DNA of 8,756 bases from assembly GCF_003334385.1 (NCBI RefSeq), contig NZ_QOWN01000071.1, one strand, 5' to 3'. The notes under the pieces were generated by a model that had not been told where the DNA came from, made no database searches, and worked only from the letters and a program-made list of their open reading frames with translations. A program made the position numbers and the translations under genes. This document shows positions 1 through 8,756 of the stretch, piece by piece (the first letter of the stretch is position 1; the number at the start of each line of letters is the position of its first letter). The DNA is from Escherichia coli. GTDB lineage: Bacteria; Pseudomonadota; Gammaproteobacteria; Enterobacterales; Enterobacteriaceae.

Positions 1-99
1 AACGCGAGGCATCGTCTTAACGAGGCACCGAGGCGTCGCATTCTTCAGATGGTTCAACCCTTAAGTTAGCGCTTATGAGATTTTTCCCCGCCAGCGTCA

Positions 100-876
100 T
101 CATTTCCGGATTTTCGCCAGTGCATCCGCCATGCTGCGGATTTCATCCCGTGCCTCCAGAACAACCTCCCGCAGAATATCCCGGTCAAACCAGCGACGGG
201 ACGGTTCATCCGGTATACGCAGCACATCACAGACCAGACCACTGGCCAGGATATGCTCAATACAATCGCTGACCAGGTACATTTCCACCGACGAAAAACG
301 TGCTCCCCGGTTCACGATGGCATCGAGCACCACGGGCAGATTTTCGTCATCTTCATCAAGCCAGCAGGGGTAATCGCTTTCCTTCACAACCAGACGAAAG
401 CGGCGCGTCTGGCGGGTCAGCAACGTCTGACCGGTGGTGGTCAACGCCGCACGGATACGCCGCGCATCTTCTGCCACCCGGCAACTGACACTGCATACTG
501 CATCGCGCACCGCATCAAAAACCGCCCTGATTTCTTCCTCCGTCAGCCATTCACCGGCATACGGGAAAGACACCTGCGTTCCGTCTGCCGGAAGTACCGG
601 CAGCGACTGCCACTGACTGCCGGACAGTACAACTTCCGCCCCGGTTCCGGTCAGTTTCTGAATGGCGGAGGCCAGGTGCGGCGGCAGCACGCCATCGTGG
701 CGGTTAACGAGTAACGTCGCCAGCCGGGGCGCATCCAGCAGAACATAAATGCTGATCCAGCCCGGATACTTCGGGTTACGCTGGTCAACATCCGTCTCTT
801 CCGGCCAGCCCTGCGCCAGCAGCAGGTTGCGGGCGTGACGACAAATCAGTGCGTTCAGCGTTGTGTTTTCGTTCAT
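100..876 (-). CDS. Hypothetical protein (258 aa), last gene of the methyltransferase-led operon
   Basis: Long ORF on the minus strand. The reverse complement of 877-895 gives ttcaGGGAGAacgattaat immediately before the ATG, a Shine-Dalgarno-like GGGAGA. It follows the three upstream minus-strand genes with short gaps. I do not recognise a family; function unknown. Confidence 0.7.
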
Positions 877-921
877 GATTAATCGTTCTCCCTGAATCGC
901 CGCCCGGAGGCGGCGATAACA

Positions 922-1356
922 TCAGTCGTTTTCGTGTCTGTTGTTTTTCAGCAGGGTGCGGGCCTGATTAATCACCGCCTGACGGCGGGTGACGCATTCC
1001 GGGACGGCGAGGCCATAATCCCGGGCGGCCCATTCACGTTTCCACAATGCCTGTTCAGCGGTCTGAATCAGGGACGTCAGCAGTTCAGCAGGGACGGTCA
1101 CCTGGCGGTTTTCTCTCACGTTATTGATGATCTCCATCGCCACGCCGGAAGAAATACCGGATTCAGTCCGCTGGTCTTCCGGGATGTCCTCCAGGCGCGC
1201 CAGGACGGTTCTGATTTCATGATCGGACAGAGAAATATCCATTCCGTCAGCGAGGGCCTGAATCTCTTCCGGGGACCAGATAACCAGCATCAGCGGCGTG
1301 TCTCCCGGATACTTTGCTGCCAGCGCCCGGCATAGCGTTTCGCATGTTCCGTACAT
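922..1356 (-). CDS. Hypothetical protein (144 aa), third gene of the methyltransferase-led operon
   Basis: ORF with a strong RBS: the reverse complement upstream of the ATG reads gattgAGAAGGAGAcgaga-ATG. It sits 13 bp downstream of the preceding minus-strand gene. No family recognised from the sequence alone. Confidence 0.7.
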   Translation of the reverse strand: MYGTCETLCRALAAKYPGDTPLMLVIWSPEEIQALADGMDISLSDHEIRTVLARLEDIPEDQRTESGISSGVAMEIINNVRENRQVTVPAELLTSLIQTAEQALWKREWAARDYGLAVPECVTRRQAVINQARTLLKNNRHEND

Positions 1357-1369
1357 TCTCGTCTCCTTC

Positions 1370-1591
1370 TCAATCTTTGAAGCAGGAATCCAGTTCCAGA
1401 ATTTCGGTATACGCCTCCATGAACAGGCGATTGGCGCGATACAGCGTCTGGCGTGTCAGGCGTTCAACAAGCACATCGGAATCAAAGCGACAGCGATGCT
1501 CCATATCGTTCAGCCTGGCCCGAAGGTCACACATGGTGTTGGCCACCTCCGCCACGTCGGCGCGAAGTTTTTCGTGTCCGGCATAGTTCAT
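1370..1591 (-). CDS. Hypothetical small protein (73 aa), translationally coupled to the methyltransferase gene
   Basis: Its ATG directly abuts the methyltransferase stop (minus strand reads ...TAA-ATG). GGAGG lies 8 nt upstream of the ATG, inside the methyltransferase 3' end. Small size makes the call less certain. Confidence 0.6.
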   Translation of the reverse strand: MNYAGHEKLRADVAEVANTMCDLRARLNDMEHRCRFDSDVLVERLTRQTLYRANRLFMEAYTEILELDSCFKD

Positions 1592-2275
1592 TTACGCAGC
1601 CTCCGGTTCAAACCAGTTATCATTCGCGGCCCCCTGCTGCATGGCCCGTTGCACGGCGGCCAGTCGTTGCTGTCCGGCACGGTGATACTGTTCAAGCAGC
1701 TCGATACCGATATACCGGCGTCCGGACTGAAGGGCGGCCACGCAGGTTGAGCCGCTGCCTGCAAACGGGTCCAGCACAATCGCGTTCGGATGTGTGAAGC
1801 TCTCAATCAGCGGTTGCAGGCTGGTAACGGGCTTTTCCGTCGGGTGATGACGATTGCCTGAATATTTCCAGCCCAGCACATCCGGCAGAGGGTTACGGGG
1901 CCGGGCCGGACTGCCCTTTGCCAGGATGTAAGCGCATTCGTGGCGGTACGCGACATACGCAGATTTGGATGTGTAGTTTTTGGTGAACACGAGGTGCCCT
2001 GCCACGCTGAATCCGGCGCGTTTCCAGGCCGCCATAAAGCGGTCAATACGGTGCCAGCCGTAGAAGCTGACCATCAGCGCGTCTTTTTTGAGTACGCGGT
2101 ACATTTCATTACAGGCCGGTTGCAGCCATTCATCGGTTTTATCGCCAGCGATGGTGCGCCCGAAACGGTCACGAAAACCGACGAGGTACGGCGGGTCAGT
2201 CAGTATGAAATCAATGGCGTTATCAGGAATACGGGCCATAACATCGATGCAGTTACCGAGGACAAAACGGGACAT
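1592..2275 (-). CDS. Orphan DNA methyltransferase, N6-adenine/N4-cytosine beta-class (227 aa)
   Basis: The translation contains DPPY near the N-terminus (ILTDPPYLVGF) followed later by an FxGxG AdoMet-binding motif (VLDPFAGSGST) and HPTEKP. This motif order is typical of beta-class amino-methyltransferases. RBS AGGAG lies upstream of the ATG (reverse complement of 2276-2290 is agaAGGAGcgttgtt). No restriction endonuclease partner is adjacent. Confidence 0.85.
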   Translation of the reverse strand: MSRFVLGNCIDVMARIPDNAIDFILTDPPYLVGFRDRFGRTIAGDKTDEWLQPACNEMYRVLKKDALMVSFYGWHRIDRFMAAWKRAGFSVAGHLVFTKNYTSKSAYVAYRHECAYILAKGSPARPRNPLPDVLGWKYSGNRHHPTEKPVTSLQPLIESFTHPNAIVLDPFAGSGSTCVAALQSGRRYIGIELLEQYHRAGQQRLAAVQRAMQQGAANDNWFEPEAA

Positions 2276-2620
2276 AACAACGCTCCTTCTCTTACAGAGG
2301 ACACCAGGAGGGCACCCCTGTGGTGCCCGTTCCCCGCTGCCTGTGGGCTGTTCACCGCGTCCGGTAACGGGTCAGGCCGACCGTGGAATACCGCAGCAGC
2401 CGTCGTCTTTCTGACGGCAAGGCTATGCCGCGAAAGCGGCTTGAAGGGCGTTCATCAGAAAAGGGCTCCTGGCTGGCGTACACTGGCACCGACGCCAGCC
2501 AGGAGCGGTAAAAGCGCCCGTCCCGTGCCTGATCGGACGCGGGACACTGACCACAGGCAGCGTTCCTGCCGCGCCGCGTCAGCCGGCGCAGTAAAAAGAG
2601 GAGCCCGGCGACATCCTTTG
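2276..2620 (-). promoter_or_regulatory. GC-rich, hairpin-dense non-coding leader upstream of the methyltransferase operon (possible promoter or single-strand promoter-like element)
   Basis: No credible ORF with an RBS. Inverted repeats read directly: perfect 15-bp stem gctcctggctggcgt (2465-2479) with acgccagccaggagc (2492-2506) and a 12-nt loop; GGGCACC (2310-2316) with GGTGCCC (2322-2328); GCCGTC (2399-2404) with GACGGC (2413-2418); gtcccg (2520-2525) with cgggac (2540-2545). The region lies between the parR terminator and the methyltransferase start. Confidence 0.45.
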
Positions 2621-2654
2621 TCGGAAAAGAAAAAAGGACGCAACAGCGTCCTTT
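2621..2654 (-). terminator. Rho-independent terminator downstream of the parR-like gene
   Basis: Stem AGGACGC (2635-2641) and GCGTCCT (2646-2652) with loop AACA. On the minus strand the hairpin is followed by a U-run (plus-strand A-run ggaaaagaaaaaa at 2621-2634). It sits 16 bp after the parR-like stop. Confidence 0.65.
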
Positions 2655-2669
2655 AACAGAGTTCAGTTC

Positions 2670-3098
2670 TTATTCATCATCCGGAAACAAGTTCTTAATG
2701 TTGTTTCTTGTTTCCAGGAGATTCTGATCGACTGGAGCAGATATTTCTTGCGTAGCAGAATCAACCGCAGGCAGGATCGTTTTTGCATTATTACCGGCAG
2801 ACTGCAGAAATGCCTCCAGCAAACGAACAACTTCACCATTTTCCTGTTGTGGTAGCGTACTACTGATAATTCGTTGAATATCCCGCATAGACGTGCTGTC
2901 TGTCAGGAATTCAGCTATCAGAAACGGCAATCGTTCATCCTGTTTCATCAATGCAGCACCACACAACATCATGGCCCGCATTGCCCGACCACGTTCTTTC
3001 TGAGGCAATTTTTCAAGAAACCTGTCAGCCACCCGATCAGCTGCATTTCGTTCCGGATAAATATAAAAAGAGCACTTACGATTATCAGCCATACTCAT
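2670..3098 (-). CDS. parR: ParR/StbB-like centromere-binding partition protein (142 aa)
   Basis: Small gene immediately downstream of the parM-like gene and overlapping it by 4 nt (ATGA). By recollection it resembles plasmid R1 ParR in its central part (...LPQKERGRAMRAMMLCGAALMKQDERLPFLIAEFLT...). An alternative start two codons in (3092) has better SD spacing. Confidence 0.65.
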   Translation of the reverse strand: MSMADNRKCSFYIYPERNAADRVADRFLEKLPQKERGRAMRAMMLCGAALMKQDERLPFLIAEFLTDSTSMRDIQRIISSTLPQQENGEVVRLLEAFLQSAGNNAKTILPAVDSATQEISAPVDQNLLETRNNIKNLFPDDE

Positions 3099-4075
3099 CC
3101 CTTCATTGCCATCATTCCCAACACCAGATCGAACTGAGGATTGTCACTGACAAAGAAACGGTTATCACCCACTCCTGTCGCTTTTTTTACTGCCCCAGCC
3201 ACAAGGCTGGCACCACCGCCAACAACCATAACATGAGTAAAACCAGCAAAGCGTCCTACTGAATCCGCCACACGATGCTGCAGTTTTTTTTCCCGGTCAC
3301 GTAATACTGTCAGGATCTGCTCACGCTGTTCTGCATTCGGGATATAACGAGTCAGGAATTCATTGTCATCCCGGCCCTGGATTAGACGATCTGCAAAATA
3401 AGAACTGGTTCGTGTACTCACATTCACATCCATCGCATGCTTAACTGCTTCAGTAATGATGGAAACGCCTGTCTTGGGGTCACAATAAGTTTTTGTGAAA
3501 CCGGACATTTTGCTGCGGACATGTGCAATATCAAGGGTCGTTCCACCGATATCAACGATCAACAGCGACTCCAGATCATTCAGATCTTTCAGCACGTCAA
3601 AACCGGCAGGCACGGACTCAGGCAAGACACTGACTTTACGAATGGTAAAGTTTTCACGCCCCTGAACTGTTACAGCTCGTCTGACATTATTTTTCTTACG
3701 TTCGATATTAGCCAGATTTGGCTGATCGTTCTCATCCAGATACTCACCTAAAGGTAAAGTCACAACAATATCAACAGGTTGCGGAGCAATACCTGACTGC
3801 ATCAACGCATGATGAATAGCAACCACATTAACGTCGCTGTACTGATAACGCGTTTCTGTGGTGCGCACTGCATCCGGACTCAATTGATCAAAGCTGTATT
3901 TCTCTCCATCAATCTCATAGTTTGCGGAAGCGGGTATAGTGGCATCAGTCAGTCCCTGCAGCGTCATAGACCATTCCGGTTTAAAACTATTCGGGCTAAT
4001 TAACGTTTTCACTGCACCGTCTTCAACCCAAGCCAGTTTGATGTTGGTAGAACCGTCATCTACAAAGATACGCAT
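3095..4075 (-). CDS. parM: ParM/StbA-like actin-family plasmid segregation ATPase
   Basis: The N-terminus MRIFVDDGSTNIKL, the phosphate-2-like LIVDIGGTTLDIAHV, and HVMVVGGGASLV match recalled ParM/StbA (R1/R100) motifs. I place the start at the ATG at 4075-4073, preceded by GTGAGGTTCTGG. The ORF track extends to a GTG at 4087 that overlaps that SD. Confidence 0.85.
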   Translation of the reverse strand: MRIFVDDGSTNIKLAWVEDGAVKTLISPNSFKPEWSMTLQGLTDATIPASANYEIDGEKYSFDQLSPDAVRTTETRYQYSDVNVVAIHHALMQSGIAPQPVDIVVTLPLGEYLDENDQPNLANIERKKNNVRRAVTVQGRENFTIRKVSVLPESVPAGFDVLKDLNDLESLLIVDIGGTTLDIAHVRSKMSGFTKTYCDPKTGVSIITEAVKHAMDVNVSTRTSSYFADRLIQGRDDNEFLTRYIPNAEQREQILTVLRDREKKLQHRVADSVGRFAGFTHVMVVGGGASLVAGAVKKATGVGDNRFFVSDNPQFDLVLGMMAMKG

Positions 4076-4087
4076 CCAGAACCTCAC

Positions 4088-4300
4088 AGAATAAAATGGA
4101 TTTTTTTAGAAAAATATGGTGTCGAAAAAGATTATCACCTAGAAACACGCATCAGTAAAGACCTGATATCGGCCACAAACAGAAAGATAAAGAAAAATAA
4201 AGACAAAAACCGACTCAAATAGCACACCAGGGAACAAACAAGAACAATAAAAGACAAATGCAGTTAAAATTCAGAAAAAAACTGAACAGGTGAACGGAGA
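4088..4300 (-). promoter_or_regulatory. AT-rich upstream region of the parMR-like operon (putative promoter and parC-like centromere)
   Basis: About 210 bp of A-rich non-coding sequence directly upstream of parM, where parC sits in known parMRC loci. Loose recurrences of aaagac/aaagat motifs are visible, but I could not delineate clear iterons by eye. Confidence 0.3.
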
Positions 4301-4664
4301 AGGGGGCTCATCCAGCACATGCTGTATTTGGGTTCAGTTTGGAATTCGGAAAATAAACCACGTTAAGACTATTTTTTAGCCAAATGGCTTTCAGGAATCG
4401 CCAGAATGGCGGGACAACAGTGGTTTTGGTGTCCGAAATCGTACAATTCTGTACATCTACGCAAGGAAATGTACGGAAGTAAGCCAAATGGTTATCGGAC
4501 GGTAGGAACATTTCGTACAGCCTTTACGTTCAGTGAGTGAGCTGGTCTGGATGTAACCACTCGTTCAACTCAATTCTCTTAGCGTGGGAAAATTTCCTTT
4601 CTCCAAGCGGCTCCCAAACCGTAATTCCCGGCAAGCCCGGTAAGCTGGGCAGCAAGCTAGGCAC

Positions 4665-4964
4665 TCAAAGAATGAACCGGGGATTCTGACGCTGACCTAC
4701 AACCGCCAGGATATTGACACGACGGGCCTTATCATTCACTTCATAAAGTACATGCTGCCCAAGTAAGCTAATACGACGAACCCCTTCGCCATAGCGTTCA
4801 TCAGTTTCATACAGCCGAGGGTAATCAGCCAGGCGATCGGTTGCAGTGATCAGACGCTCTGTCACGTTCCTTGCATCCCAAAGAGATGCATTCTCAGCCA
4901 GATATTCAAACAGCGCAGTTATATCTTCAATTGCACCTGGTCGCCATTCTATTTCATAACTCAT
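4665..4964 (-). CDS. RelE/ParE-superfamily toxin of a type II toxin-antitoxin module (99 aa)
   Basis: About 100-aa protein whose start overlaps the upstream small gene by 11 nt. The sequence pattern (YEIEWRPGAIEDI..., ...RRVNILAVVGQRQN) is consistent with RelE/ParE-fold toxins as I recall them. Confidence 0.7.
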   Translation of the reverse strand: MSYEIEWRPGAIEDITALFEYLAENASLWDARNVTERLITATDRLADYPRLYETDERYGEGVRRISLLGQHVLYEVNDKARRVNILAVVGQRQNPRFIL

Positions 4965-5217
4965 TGCGCAGTTCCTGATAACGTCCCTGTAGTTGCTGGC
5001 GCAGTTGCGCGGAACTCATTCCCGGCCGCTTATCGGCGCGAGCAGCGGCAACTTTCGCTCGTATCTGTTCGTCGTATTCTGCCCGTGCCAGTTCTTCATT
5101 AGCAAGGCGTTGCAATAGTGCAGACTTGTCTGTACTGCCTTCTGGAAAAATACGAGGCAGGCTTTCGGCCAGCTCGCGCAGGAAATTGGCGTTTTCGTAA
5201 TGTGTGGTGCTATTCAT
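4954..5217 (-). CDS. Putative antitoxin of the RelE/ParE-type module (87 aa from the second ATG)
   Basis: Small ORF upstream of and overlapping the toxin gene (antitoxin-first order). I prefer the second ATG at 5217 because the minus strand reads ATGAAGGGGGAGTCAACT-ATG, which places a GGGGGAG SD about 7 nt before it. The ORF track starts at 5235. Antitoxin family uncertain. Confidence 0.6.
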   Translation of the reverse strand: MNSTTHYENANFLRELAESLPRIFPEGSTDKSALLQRLANEELARAEYDEQIRAKVAAARADKRPGMSSAQLRQQLQGRYQELRNEL

Positions 5218-5291
5218 AGTTGACTCCCCCTTCATTTAATAAAGAGCAATTACAGGTTTTTTGATGTCGTACGCATGGGTATAACGAGTCA

Positions 5292-5305
5292 GAATATCGA
5301 TATTC
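5292..5305. promoter_or_regulatory. Perfect 14-bp palindrome GAATATCGATATTC upstream of the toxin-antitoxin operon (candidate operator)
   Basis: Read directly; self-complementary. It lies about 75-88 bp upstream of the preferred antitoxin ATG. Type II antitoxins commonly autoregulate through palindromic operators. Confidence 0.3.
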
Positions 5306-5619
5306 ACTCCGATGATATTGTTTCACAGGCAGGCGATAACCGGAAAATAATGCTCATTTACCTGGCAATCTGCGTGTTGTCAGGTTTTATACAGAGTATA
5401 TAACCTTTCAGACACAGCCACCAACATATGCCGCGTCAGCGGCATGGAAGGCGGTACTCTGTGGTTACATGCGGCACAAGTGTAAAACCGCCGAAGCCCG
5501 GCGTAAGCCGGTACTGATTGACAGGTTTCACCTTACCCACCCCCGGCCCTGCCAGACAGTGGGGGCTTAAAGGGGTAGTGTGACATCCTGACAGCAACTG
5601 AAAGCAAAATGTAAACACA

Positions 5620-5812
5620 ATATTAATTTTTGTAAAAAAGCAATAACTATACAAACATAACTAACTGATATTACTATTAAATATTTAACAGGCGTACAAA
5701 TTTAGTTCAAATTATCATTGCAAAATATAGTTAATTACAGCAAGTAACTAGTGTTGGCCAACATACTATTCAGATGTCATAAGCATTAATTTCCCTTAAA
5801 AAAGGAGTCCTT
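5620..5812 (+). promoter_or_regulatory. AT-rich promoter and leader region of the microcin B17 operon
   Basis: Strongly AT-rich tract directly upstream of mcbA. Candidate -10-like hexamers are TATAGT (5726-5731) and TCATAA (5777-5782), the latter with TTGGCC (5754-5759) 17 bp upstream. mcbA RBS AGGAG is at 5803-5807, 5 nt before the ATG. Exact promoter not mapped. Confidence 0.4.
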
Positions 5813-6010
5813 ATGGAATTAAAAGCGAGTGAATTTGGTGTAGTTTTGTCCGTTGATGCTCTTAAATTATCACGCCAGTCTCCATTAGGTGTTGGCATTG
5901 GTGGTGGTGGCGGCGGTAGCTGCGGTGGTCAAGGTGGCGGTTGTGGTGGTTGCAGCAACGGTTGTAGTGGTGGAAACGGTGGCAGCGGCGGAAGTGGTTC
6001 ACATATCTGA
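5813..6010 (+). CDS. mcbA: Microcin B17 precursor peptide McbA, variant with a shortened poly-Gly linker (65 aa)
   Basis: The translation MELKASEFGVVLSVDALKLSRQSPLG-VGIGGGGGG-SCGGQGGGCGGCSNGCSGGNGGSGGSGSHI matches the microcin B17 leader and core as I recall them, including the Gly-Ser-Cys and Gly-Cys-Ser heterocyclisation sites. Only 6 Gly codons (5900-5917) follow VGI. Confidence 0.95.
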   Translation: MELKASEFGVVLSVDALKLSRQSPLGVGIGGGGGGSCGGQGGGCGGCSNGCSGGNGGSGGSGSHI

Positions 6011-6027
6011 TACGTTGAATTAACCGT

Positions 6028-6050
6028 TCAGGGAGCATGGTGCTCCCTGA
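6028..6050 (+). promoter_or_regulatory. Perfect stem-loop between mcbA and mcbB (10-bp stem, 3-nt loop)
   Basis: tCAGGGAGCA (6028-6037), loop TGG, TGCTCCCTGa (6041-6050), verified base by base. It starts 18 nt after the mcbA stop and encloses the first in-frame ATG of the mcbB ORF (6037). It is not followed by a U-tract. Confidence 0.5.
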
Positions 6051-6924
6051 TATTAAAAAAGGAAAAGATATGATCAATATTCTGCCATTTGAGATAATTT
6101 CCAGAAATACAAAGACCCTGCTTATTACCTACATTTCTTCAGTAGACATTACACATGAGGGAATGAAAAAAGTACTCGAAAGCCTACGATCCAAACAGGG
6201 TATTATTTCTGAATACCTCCTTGATAAACTACTGGACGAATCGCTTATTGATAAAGACAAGGGCAAAGAGTTTCTTATTACCACAGGCGTGATAAATAAA
6301 ACGAAAACATCACCTCTCTGGGTAAACTCAGTCATAATAAGCGATGTTCCACATCTTTTCAGTAATGCCCGGGAACAATGGAAATCTGATGGTGTTTTTG
6401 TTTCTCATATCATTGATATAAAAGATAATAATATTAATGTGAGCGATTCAACACTAATCTGGTTACATCTCGAAAACTATCATTCAGACATTGTAAAAAG
6501 AATCTATTCAAAATTTGAAAGTAACCCTGGTGTTGCCTTCATCCAAAGCTACTACCTAAAGGAGTCATTCAGGATAGATGGAGTATATTCACCTGATCTT
6601 GGTACTCCCTGCCATTTTTGTCATATAGAGAGATGGCTGAGCAGGGAAGAAAAAAGCTTCAGACGTAACGAAATGTCCTGGGCAAATTTACTTCAGTTAC
6701 TGAAAAAATACTAAATGACACTACCAGCATTGGCTTTAGGCGAGTCAGAAAGAGGATTCAGCTATCATTTAATAAAACGGCGACTTCAGGAGTTGACAGG
6801 TACTTCACTGGTTAAAAGTCATGTCGATAGCTTTATGTCATCTGTTAGCGCTGATTTAATCACCTGTATTTTATGTAAAGAGCCGGTAATTCACTGGCAG
6901 GCTTGCAGCTGTCTGGAGAGATAA
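6037..6924 (+). pseudogene. mcbB: mcbB (microcin B17 synthetase zinc-binding scaffold subunit) interrupted by an in-frame TAA at 6712-6714
   Basis: The 225-aa ORF 6037-6714 and the 69-aa ORF 6715-6924 are in the same frame, separated only by TAA. Together they give 225+1+69 = 295 codons, which is the McbB length I recall. CHFCH lies in the N-terminal part and CILC...CSC in the C-terminal part. An RBS-supported alternative start is the ATG at 6070 (AGGA at 6060-6063). Confidence 0.8.
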
Positions 6925-6925
6925 C

Positions 6926-7744
6926 ATGTCAAAACACGAACTCTCTTTAGTGGAAGTAACGCATTACACAGATCCTGAAGTTCTGGCCATTGTTAAAGAT
7001 TTTCATGTCAGAGGTAACTTTGCTTCCCTCCCCGAATTTGCTGAACGAACTTTCGTGTCCGCGGTACCTCTTGCCCATCTGGAGAAATTTGAAAATAAAG
7101 AAGTTCTCTTCAGGCCAGGTTTCAGCTCCGTAATAAACATATCCTCATCACATAATTTTAGTCGTGAAAGGCTCCCATCAGGAATAAACTTTTGCGACAA
7201 AAATAAACTTTCCATTCGTACTATTGAAAAGTTATTAGTCAATGCATTCAGCTCACCTGATCCTAGCTCTGTAAGAAGACCTTATCCTTCTGGGGGGGCA
7301 TTGTGCCCGATTGAAGTTTTTTTATGCAGATTATCTGAAAATACAGAAAACTGGCAGTCAGGAACTAATGTTTATCACTACCTGCCGCTAAGTCAGGCAC
7401 TGGAACCTGTTGCTACATGTAATACTCAGTCACTCTACCGAAGCCTGTCCGGTGGGGATTCGGAACGTCTTGGTAAACCCCATTTTGCTCTCGTCTATTG
7501 CATTATTTTTGAAAAAGCTTTGTTCAAATATCGCTACAGAGGATACCGGATGGCCTTAATGGAAACAGGTTCGATGTATCAGAACGCAGTATTGGTTGCA
7601 GATCAAATAGGACTGAAAAACCGGGTATGGGCGGGATATACCGATTCATACGTAGCAAAAACAATGAATCTGGATCAGAGGACTGTAGCGCCACTGATCG
7701 TTCAGTTTTTTGGAGATGTAAACGATGATAAATGTCTACAGTAA
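6926..7744 (+). CDS. mcbC: McbC, FMN-dependent dehydrogenase of microcin B17 synthetase (272 aa)
   Basis: 272-aa ORF, matching the McbC length I recall. It starts 1 nt after the mcbB stop, with GGAGAG 7 nt upstream, and contains a nitroreductase-like RPYPSGGALCPIE region. The gene order follows the known mcb operon. Confidence 0.93.
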   Translation: MSKHELSLVEVTHYTDPEVLAIVKDFHVRGNFASLPEFAERTFVSAVPLAHLEKFENKEVLFRPGFSSVINISSSHNFSRERLPSGINFCDKNKLSIRTIEKLLVNAFSSPDPSSVRRPYPSGGALCPIEVFLCRLSENTENWQSGTNVYHYLPLSQALEPVATCNTQSLYRSLSGGDSERLGKPHFALVYCIIFEKALFKYRYRGYRMALMETGSMYQNAVLVADQIGLKNRVWAGYTDSYVAKTMNLDQRTVAPLIVQFFGDVNDDKCLQ

Positions 7745-8618
7745 CCTTATGTCCGCATGGCCGGCCACAATGGCCATGAGTCCAAAACTGAACAGAAATA
7801 TGCCAACGTTTTCTCAGATATGGGACTATGAGCGTATTACACCAGCCAGCGCGGCCGGTGAAACTCTGAAGTCAATTCAGGGGGCAATAGGTGAATATTT
7901 TGAACGCCGTCATTTTTTTAATGAGATAGTCACCGGTGGTCAGAAAACATTATATGAGATGATGCCTCCATCTGCTGCAAAGGCTTTTACCGAAGCATTT
8001 TTTCAGATCTCATCACTGACCCGCGATGAAATCATAACCCATAAATTTAAAACGGTCAGAGCCTTTAATCTGTTTAGCCTTGAACAACAAGAAATACCTG
8101 CAGTCATAATTGCACTCGACAATATAACCGCTGCAGATGATCTGAAATTTTATCCTGACAGAGATACATGCGGATGTAGCTTTCATGGTAGTTTGAACGA
8201 TGCCATAGAAGGTTCCTTGTGTGAATTTATGGAGAGACAGTCCCTCCTTCTTTACTGGTTACAGGGAAAAGCCAATACTGAAATATCCAGTGAAATAGTA
8301 ACAGGCATAAATCATATTGATGAGATTTTACTGGCTCTCAGGTCAGAAGGAGATATCAGGATTTTCGATATCACCCTGCCCGGAGCTCCTGGACACGCAG
8401 TACTAACCCTGTATGGCACAAAAAACAAAATCAGTCGAATAAAATACAGTACCGGATTATCCTATGCTAATAGTCTGAAAAAAGCACTTTGTAAATCCGT
8501 AGTGGAATTGTGGCAATCGTATATATGCCTGCACAACTTTCTTATTGGCGGTTATACTGATGATGACATTATTGATAGTTACCAGCGTCACTTTATGTCA
8601 TGCAACAAGTACGGGTAA
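7725..8618 (+). pseudogene. mcbD: mcbD (YcaO-type cyclodehydratase of microcin B17 synthetase) truncated by an IS1-family insertion
   Basis: The ORF starts MINVYSNLMSAW... and overlaps the mcbC end by 20 nt. It runs 296 mcbD codons and then ends in G-stop, where the codons are supplied by the IS1 terminal repeat (GG-TAA-TG). McbD is about 396 aa by recollection, so roughly the C-terminal 100 residues are missing. Confidence 0.88.
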
Positions 8619-8636
8619 TGACTCCAACTTACTGAT
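8614..8636. repeat. IS1 terminal inverted repeat (23 bp)
   Basis: GGTAATGACTCCAACTTACTGAT matches the IS1 terminal inverted repeat consensus. It directly abuts mcbD coding sequence. Confidence 0.75.
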
Positions 8637-8756
8637 AGTGTTTTATGTTCAGATAATGCCCGATGACCTTGTCATGCAACTCCACCGATTTTGAGAACGA
8701 CAGTAACTTCCGTCCCAGCCTTGCCAGATGTTGTCTCAGATTCAGATTATGTCGCT
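8629..8756 (-). CDS. insB: IS1 transposase InsB, C-terminal fragment (5' end outside the window)
   Basis: The minus-strand translation ...[41 protein letters not shown]-stop matches the IS1 InsB C-terminus from memory. The stop TAA is the complement of 8629-8631. Confidence 0.75.

Follow-up and report, generated by a model that had tools for sequence, protein, structure and literature searches.

The window, by which we mean the whole stretch of 8,756 nt under analysis, is part of an IncF-type plasmid (Table 1). Leading-region genes, parR/parM and a toxin-antitoxin (TA) module of the RelE/ParE family are followed by a GC-rich non-coding segment, an AT-rich tract and the microcin B17 (mcb) genes. 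The match of the TA module to RelB antitoxins was weak (NCBIfam), and the module forms a cargo unit attached to the GC-rich segment on its left. The mcb operon in the window has a nonsense codon in mcbB and IS1 in mcbD, and it is decaying in this lineage. The 47-kb contig OAWU01000198.1 is 99.9% identical and ends in IS1.

Table 1. Features of the window and of the comparison plasmid L001 (L001 in coordinates of its own record)
Feature	Position	Strand	Remark
Leading-region genes	left part of window	-	
DNA methyltransferase	1592-2275	-	among the leading-region genes
parR/parM	2670-4087		right of the leading region
RelE/ParE-family toxin	4665-4964	-	RefSeq annotation of homologous loci
Antitoxin paired with RelE/ParE toxin	4954-5235	-	RefSeq annotation of homologous loci
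Left extension	5388-5427		palindrome TATAC-aga-GTATA (5388-5400); common to TA-linked G-site copies
Putative G-site core	5428-5557	+	homologous to the IncFII/IncI replicon block at its outer end
Outer hairpin ATGCCGC-GTCA-GCGGCAT	5428-5445	+	outer limit of the conserved block
Long-range stem GGCGG/CCGCC	5451-5455 / 5489-5493	+	encloses the variable loop
Stem-loop I CCGGC-GTAA-GCCGG	5498-5511	+	
CTG, predicted primase start	5514-5516	+	primer would start opposite T5515 and run leftwards
Breakpoint, replicon-type / mcb module	5558-5559		
E. coli-type mcb-specific upstream region	5559-5717	+	AT-rich from 5600
Predicted mcbA gearbox promoter	5718-5746	+	-35 TTGCAA (5718-5723); -10 CAGCAAGTA (5738-5746)
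mcbA ribosome-binding site AGGAG	5803-5807		
mcbA, microcin B17 precursor, 65 aa	5813-6010	+	NCBIfam NF041037, E 4e-36
mcbB, mcbC, truncated mcbD	after mcbA		window ends inside mcbD
L001 homologous copy	4040-4169		89% identity to the window segment
L001 CTG	4126-4128		some 400 bp past the end of oriR, as placed from the DnaA box
L001 inverted Ter-like sites	4330-4346 and 4469-4485		
L001 DnaA box	4705-4713		

The GC content fell from 0.57 at 5401-5600 to 0.245 at 5601-5800. The step at 5600 was 0.34, the maximum of the window and the 99.96th percentile in a two-sided scan (170/213 nt), which bears out the sharp fall reported in the preliminary description of this DNA. By element, GC was 0.61 for 5428-5557 (130 bp) and 0.26 for the AT-rich 213 bp from 5600. 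The sequence left of 5600 had been called GC-balanced to GC-rich; this holds only for 5428-5599 and for the distant leading region (1-2650, GC 0.58, GC3 about 0.64) but not for 5201-5427, with GC 0.395 at 5201-5400 and 0.375 at 5388-5427. The mcb genes had GC of 0.41 and GC3 of 0.30-0.39, near the GC3 of parM/parR (0.39-0.43) and of the toxin gene (0.37), so the different codon usage ascribed to mcb is a contrast with the leading region and not with the adjacent genes. AT-richness is normal in a gearbox-type promoter region. The step at 5600 is a local contrast of two small elements, not the edge between a backbone and an island.

The segment 5428-5557 showed 85-89% identity to the outer part of a conserved replicon block in at least 5000 plasmids, with sharp ends. 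Together with its left extension (5388-5557) it had matches of about 85% in at least 5000 IncF/IncI plasmids, with homology that broke off abruptly at 5557. A covariance model of 18 plasmid copies gave 156 bits at 5428-5557. A scan of GTDB genomes with a 28-nt pattern returned only 10 loci, mainly mis-binned plasmid contigs. The conserved order in the IncFII/IncI block is repA, oriR, a Ter pair and then this segment. The ordinary IncFII plasmid L001 has repA, the DnaA box, the Ter pair, the segment, a CPBP/tir-like gene and pemIK in this order. In a published annotation of an R100-like replicon, ori lies between repA1 and repA4, tir and pemIK follow downstream, and the repA4 region, which contains the ter sites, is required for stable maintenance (PMC4398462). 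The strand relative to oriR was read in L001, L008 and L009; for the window itself, oriR falls outside. The CTG strand in all three was antisense to repA, with the stem-loop on the side of the CTG away from oriR. It means that the CTG strand in the canonical copies is the template for synthesis heading away from repA.

At the G site of the plasmids R1 and R100, some 400 bp downstream of oriR, leading-strand synthesis is begun by DnaG primase alone. We take 5428-5557 to be a copy of this G site, a putative primase-dependent single-strand priming signal; the link to R1 and R100 is made by position and by structural signature. A primase-dependent start of the leading strand in the repA4 region was reportedly described for R1 and R100/NR1 by Masai & Arai in 1989, Bernander et al. 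in 1992 and Jiang et al. in 1993.

Of the two hairpins named in the preliminary description, the ATGCCGC hairpin was found at exactly 5428-5445, and the CCGGC hairpin was also present but at 5498-5511, one base off the earlier 5499-5512. Shuffling of the 213-nt region gives a perfect 7-bp hairpin in about 7% of cases, which makes the hairpins by themselves weak evidence; we take them as real because they were conserved in about 150 independent copies. The + strand had a DNA-fold z-score of -3.2 and the - strand one of -2.4. The long-range stem was nearly invariant while its loop was the most variable portion of the element, and the stem of stem-loop I was invariant save one G-T wobble. RNAalifold with 18 copies gave no compensatory change in any of 26 predicted pairs, and because the copies were so alike (85-92%) there was no usable covariation signal. 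The only structural hints were wobble-preserving changes and, in one lineage, an outer hairpin shortened by 1 bp with compensation.

The oric of the phages G4, alpha3 and phiK are the prototype priming signals used by primase only. The apex of stem-loop I in the window, GGCGTAAGCCG, matched GGCGAAAGCCG of G4 and GGCGTTAGCCG of alpha3/phiK. The templates read GGACGGC-GAAA-GCCGCCGTCC-CTACTG in G4 and GGAAGGC-GTTA-GCCGCCTTCC-CTCCTG in alpha3 and phiK, and the window counterpart is CCCGGC-GTAA-GCCGG-TACTG. The pattern GGCGNNAGCCG-N0-12-CTG had one match in the window, GGCGTAAGCCGGTACTG at 5500-5516 on the + strand, with 0.01 expected; this pattern was picked post hoc with the plasmid sequence already seen, so the match is suggestive only. 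Each of the three phage genomes had a single match, at oric, and in the GenBank record of G4 the pattern coincides with the primer (3970-3997) and the complementary-strand origin (3998). Among 22 loci there was one match per copy with intact stem-loop I and CTG, and no other match. The pattern missed the copies of L002 and L024, in which CTG is changed to CGG, and one copy of L015 (L015a) with a change in the stem. The covariance model located the stem-loop I sites of G4, alpha3 and phiK, but not significantly, with E values of only 2.3-8.9. BLAST of 5380-5600 against 50,697 phage records gave chance matches of 19-24 nt only, none of them to G4.

The join between the replicon-type segment and the mcb module lies at 5558/5559. 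Ori-linked copies read CCAGACCA/TACCCGC at the breakpoint (CCAGACCA/TACCCGCTTTCAGCC, running into the Ter/oriR side), and mcb-linked copies read CCAGACCA/GTGGGGGC (all of them CCAGACCA/GTGGGGGCTTAAAGG, running into the mcb upstream region); the window is without one C at the breakpoint. A query spanning the breakpoint was covered at 80% or more by 106 PLSDB plasmids. Since 105 of 138 mcb records covered at least 80% of 5558-6100, these roughly 106 junction plasmids are essentially all E. coli-type mcb plasmids. They include IncF-type and IncI-gamma/K1 replicons. Their left neighbours vary, from an acyltransferase, CPBP-pemIK and an 885-nt hypothetical gene (L024) to RelE/ParE in the window. 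L002, with yacAB as left neighbour, has about 290 bp between its G-site copy and the mcb upstream region and so does not share the junction. Upstream of a Klebsiella-type mcb cluster the sequence is unrelated, with a recombinase gene and no G site, and BLAST homology to this cluster begins only at 5716, at the -35 box.

An identical join in about 106 IncF/IncI mcb plasmids means that the join is old. The fusion of G site and mcb is an old event which travels with the E. coli-type module, and the recent recombination lies within the GC-rich segment or to the left of it. The boundary at about 5600 had been proposed as the insertion junction of mcb; it is displaced by the common breakpoint at 5558/5559, and the same flank is contiguous with mcb on two replicon types, which the preliminary description had itself given as a refutation of local insertion, so that no local insertion took place here. 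What survives of the proposed acquired AT-rich island is a portable, AT-richer module with different left neighbours on IncFII-type and IncI-gamma/K1 plasmids. The idea of a junction remnant is right in that the segment sits between backbone-type and mcb-type sequence, but the breakpoint is at its right end and is old.

A transposon- or integrase-borne island was considered and rejected. No inverted-repeat partner or transposon ends were found at the mcb left end in L009, the transposon-like feature downstream of mcbG in L009 was only an unrelated miniature Tn3-type inverted-repeat pair, and no integrase was annotated next to mcb in the E. coli-type plasmids examined. The island of L009 is flanked by direct G-site repeats.

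Such direct G-site copies flanked mcb in L004/L008, L006, L009 and the metagenome contigs L091 and L121. In typical mcb plasmids the pair consists of an ori-linked copy next to oriR and an mcb-linked copy next to the promoter. The copies of L008/L004 were at 1585-1709 and at about 9.7 kb of the record, and the repeats of L009 (62-95 nt) were 7.6 kb apart. A 21-bp deletion has removed the 3' arm of the long stem from most mcb-linked copies (L004, L005, L006, L009, L019), and the mcb-linked copy of L024 has CTG changed to CGG. Such decay points to a dispensable second copy. The window copy is without the 21-bp deletion.

The two sides of the window copy have different relatives. The left side (5388-5427) matched the TA-linked copies of L003, L006 and L009 at 38 of 39 positions, against at most 28 of 39 for mcb-linked copies. 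The right side (5498-5557) was identical to mcb-linked copies (60/60), with 55-56 of 60 for TA-linked ori copies. The window copy is, as judged from these matches, a mosaic with its left from TA-linked and its right from mcb-linked copies. In the simplest reading, a crossover in an identical core of 39 nt would have joined a TA-G-site unit to a G-site-mcb unit.

The region right of the breakpoint, 5559-5812, is the mcbA upstream region with a predicted gearbox promoter. Its mcb-specific part (5559-5717) was conserved in all E. coli-type mcb loci. Repeats of the TGTAAA type were present at 5610-5617 and 5630-5637, partly kept even in the Klebsiella-type region; these motifs may be activator sites. 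Gearbox promoters (mcbAp, bolAp1, ftsQp) are expressed in inverse relation to growth rate, in stationary phase. The gearbox consensus is CTGCAA / CGGCAAGTA, and mcbAp is named as a member, one of its founding examples (PMC5650638). The window -10 agrees with the consensus at 8 of 9 positions, and its relatives at 9 of 9. All 10 other mcb loci checked, from nine independent plasmids or contigs, have CGGCAAGTA, and CAGCAAGTA was found in the window and L143 only, by a G-to-A change at 5739. The gearbox motifs were conserved across all mcb loci, including those of Klebsiella type.

We consider that the locus is a duplicated G-site copy (5428-5557) beside the mcbA gearbox promoter region (5559-5812), with a probability of about 0.8. 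Both elements appear to be of known kinds, placed side by side by plasmid recombination. The window copy would have arisen by duplication and by fusion, at 5558/5559, with the left end of mcb, and would later have been remade by homologous recombination. When the + strand is single-stranded and coated by SSB, the hairpins would let DnaG start a primer at the CTG without DnaB; the primer from T5515 would copy stem-loop I and grow leftwards. The + strand in canonical plasmids would be the leading-strand template for forks leaving oriR, and the G site, some 400 bp past oriR, would prime the leading strand in unidirectional replication. Leading-region genes are expressed from the single strand that enters the recipient (PMC7690428), and these genes lie on the - strand here, so we infer that the + strand is transferred. 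The window copy could then start the complementary strand in the recipient, towards the TA, par and leading-region genes. It could also re-prime the leading strand after crossing the mcb operon, which is transcribed head-on. Any such priming roles of the window copy are probably redundant. The main role demonstrated for it, by comparison of the sequences, appears to be that of portable homology bracketing the mcb island.

A possible alternative, to which we give somewhat less than even odds, is that the GC-rich segment is an inert scar which was duplicated when mcb was captured, its conservation coming from recent descent and gene conversion. The 21-bp deletion in most mcb-linked copies and the CGG of L024 would be expected of a scar, the RNAalifold result fits with it as well, and the mcb operon of the same lineage is itself decaying. 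But the window copy retains both hairpins, the long stem and the CTG, and it has the strand and orientation in which a priming signal could act. Far less probable is the view of the preliminary description, a local insertion of the AT-rich mcb island at about 5600, beside an uncharacterised regulatory or small-RNA element at 5420-5600. It draws on the largest GC step of the window and on the richness in hairpins, but the breakpoint at 5558/5559 is common to 106 plasmids of two replicon types, and the segment is part of the replicon block in thousands of plasmids without mcb. A regulatory RNA also finds no backing in the searches: Rfam 15 had no family match in 5236-5812 at E <= 1, the sole match in the whole window at this threshold was at chance level and outside the segment, and a scan of 5100-6100 for promoter and terminator consensus gave nothing above chance and no terminator. 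The only promoter-like match was a weak one (9/12) on the - strand at 5636-5608, in the AT-rich tract and directed into the segment, within chance expectation. The segment is a homologue of the distal part of the IncFII/IncI replicon and not the uncharacterised element that had been supposed. That it codes for protein, as a repA4 remnant or as an ORF, is hardly credible. RefSeq annotates RepA4 pseudogene fragments near homologous copies, but the fragment in L020 overlaps only the last ~30 bp of the segment. The earlier statement that there is no credible ORF was upheld, as the only frame is one of 72 aa on the - strand (5436-5654) without an NCBIfam family; it starts with TTG in mcb-specific sequence and is chimeric across the junction.

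The exactness of the outer boundary raises another alternative, that the outer hairpin is a site-specific cargo-joining site with dedicated recombination at one exact nucleotide, which we regard as unlikely. We surveyed the left junctions of 149 copies from plasmids, genomes and metagenomes, of which 144 were usable. In 123 of the 144 copies the similarity started exactly at the outer hairpin's first base, and 19 further copies started at the equivalent base of the compensated, 1-bp-shorter hairpin. The left flanks fell into 20 sequence clusters, while the ori-side breakpoints were scattered. All this would suit a joining site, but no recombinase, repeat or second site was associated with the cassettes, and no G-site remnant was found where the TA module ends on the left; the best local alignment there was equalled in 41 of 300 shuffles. 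There were also nested junctions lying 7-60 nt outwards, and they fit repeated illegitimate recombination trimmed to a functional boundary. The exact boundary may come from such trimmed illegitimate recombination or from site-specific joining. As a doubtful speculation, the outer hairpin might dock IncF/IncI cargo (TA, mcb and others), with duplicate G sites serving as recombination handles and as extra starts of the complementary strand after conjugation. If this were true, whole islands could loop out by way of duplicate G sites and go on to enter other replicons.

On the preferred reading, a duplicated G-site copy beside the mcbA promoter region, an "uncharacterised element" is replaced by two well-understood ones. 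It also gives a view of how the microcin B17 island is built: direct repeats of a putative priming signal bracket it, and homologous recombination would move it between replicons. For annotation, a short non-coding element in at least 5000 plasmids has been left blank or mislabelled as a RepA4 fragment or hypothetical protein. The exact boundary shared beside many unrelated neighbours bears on how cargo is assembled next to IncF/IncI replicons.

Compared with the G site of R1 and R100/NR1, the segment has 85-89% identity to what IncFII plasmids carry at that position, the same hairpins and CTG and, in canonical copies, the same strand relative to repA. It differs in that the window copy is away from oriR, with the ori-proximal side replaced by the mcb promoter region at 5558/5559, and in that it appears to be a second, hybrid copy. 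The oric of G4, alpha3 and phiK shares with it a GC-rich stem-loop with the apex GGCG-NNA-GCCG, a CTG within 12 nt, the template strand and further hairpins 5' of stem-loop I. However, there is no overall sequence similarity, stem I has 5 bp in the window and 8-10 bp in the phages, and the upstream hairpins are laid out unlike stem-loops II and III of G4.

Frpo/ssi signals of conjugative plasmids are hairpins on the transferred strand which initiate complementary-strand synthesis (PMC7690428). The predicted G site resembles them as a hairpin-forming signal that would start the complementary strand, but Frpo serves RNA polymerase as a single-stranded promoter, whereas the G-site type is recognised by DnaG directly. 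The Pmcb gearbox promoter and its predicted counterpart in the window agree in the -35 TTGCAA, the CGGCAAGTA-type -10 and the conserved position upstream of mcbA. The window promoter departs from it with CAGCAAGTA as -10, and it stands before an operon with a nonsense codon in mcbB and IS1 in mcbD.

The mcb operon of the window carries three lesions, of which two are clearly inactivating. mcbD is disrupted by an IS1 end (window positions 8617-8756), leaving a truncated McbD of 297 aa; the last position homologous to intact mcb plasmids is 8616, and beyond it the final 140 bp of the window match IS1 copies with the annotation InsB at 100% identity. In mcbB there is an in-frame TAA at 6712-6714, which divides the product into two pieces of 225 and 69 aa, and eight intact loci (seven of them independent) have CAA at this place. 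The third lesion is a G-to-A change at position 5739 in the -10 box of the gearbox promoter of mcbA, the microcin B17 precursor gene, where the window reads CAGCAAGTA and the ten other mcb loci checked all read CGGCAAGTA. Metagenome locus L143 does not belong to these ten and has the same promoter change as the window.

L143 (4510-13097 of its coordinates, on the 47-kb contig OAWU01000198.1) matches window positions 77-8668 with 99.92% identity. The junction and the mcbB stop codon are also common to both, and the L143 contig terminates in the IS1. Its mcbB has an extra 4-nt deletion beyond the lesions shared with the window. L143 is the window's own decaying lineage, sampled in a metagenome.

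McbA (5813-6010) is 65 aa long with a six-glycine linker, while the NCBIfam profile has a length of 69 positions; the length of the glycine run differs among relatives. We also observed a perfect 10-bp hairpin, CAGGGAGCAC-cat-GTGCTCCCTG, at 6028-6050, which covers the mcbA-mcbB spacer and the first mcbB codons, with the mcbB start codon located inside the loop CAT.

The conserved block of the G site (the GC-rich putative priming signal) has its outer edge at window position 5428. In nearly all of about 149 G-site copies from the compared loci L001-L144 this edge falls at the identical nucleotide, although the 100 nt adjoining it form 20 sequence clusters. Unlike the outer edge, the breakpoints on the side toward oriR are scattered. 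The copies linked to mcb in other plasmids are decaying: five carry a 21-bp deletion taking out CAGGAGTAAAACCGCCGAAGC, one of these (L009) having lost the outer hairpin too, and two others have CTG changed to CGG (see table).

On the left of the G-site core in the window lies a 40-60-nt extension containing the palindrome TATAC-aga-GTATA (5388-5400). Other plasmids have a related palindrome at the same place, upstream of whatever leftward gene comes next. Positions 5236-5387, which separate the antitoxin gene from the G site, correspond to a stretch that RefSeq annotates in homologous loci as a helix-turn-helix/XRE pseudogene fragment.

Coordinates of mcb-linked G-site copies with lesions and of elements in the non-coding stretch 2290-2660
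Sequence	Position	Feature
L004	6891-6999	mcb-linked copy with 21-bp deletion
L005	6761-6869	mcb-linked copy with 21-bp deletion
L006	6891-6999	mcb-linked copy with 21-bp deletion
L009	9436-9530	mcb-linked copy with 21-bp deletion, without outer hairpin
L019		mcb-linked copy with 21-bp deletion
L024	~3040	mcb-linked copy with CGG for CTG
L002	~6125	mcb-linked copy with CGG for CTG
Window	2466-2505	14-bp stem
Window	2633-2654	parMR terminator

Another non-coding, GC-rich stretch dense in hairpins was seen at 2290-2660; read on the minus strand, it lies upstream of the methylase operon in the leading region. Within it, ATGCCGCgaaaGCGGCTT at 2425-2442 resembles the outer hairpin of the G site (covariance model 9.8 bits, E 0.11). 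Possibly the stretch serves the leading region as a single-strand promoter or initiation signal.

The species-representative collection lists the contigs with the G site in L010-L019 under genomes of Lachnospiraceae, Clostridiales, Collinsella, Sporosarcina and Streptomyces; these contigs are almost certainly enterobacterial plasmid contigs, mis-binned or contaminating.

In L009, two 38-bp inverted repeats of Tn3-family type (GGGGTTTGAAGCCCAATGGAGCGGAAACGTACGCTAAG) are present at 15132-15387, directly downstream of mcbG and with a spacing of only 180 bp; this pair looks like a miniature transposon remnant within the mcb island. In the Klebsiella-type mcb cluster, a small gene of the serine-recombinase family (L023, 2795-3346) adjoins mcbA upstream, in place of the G site.
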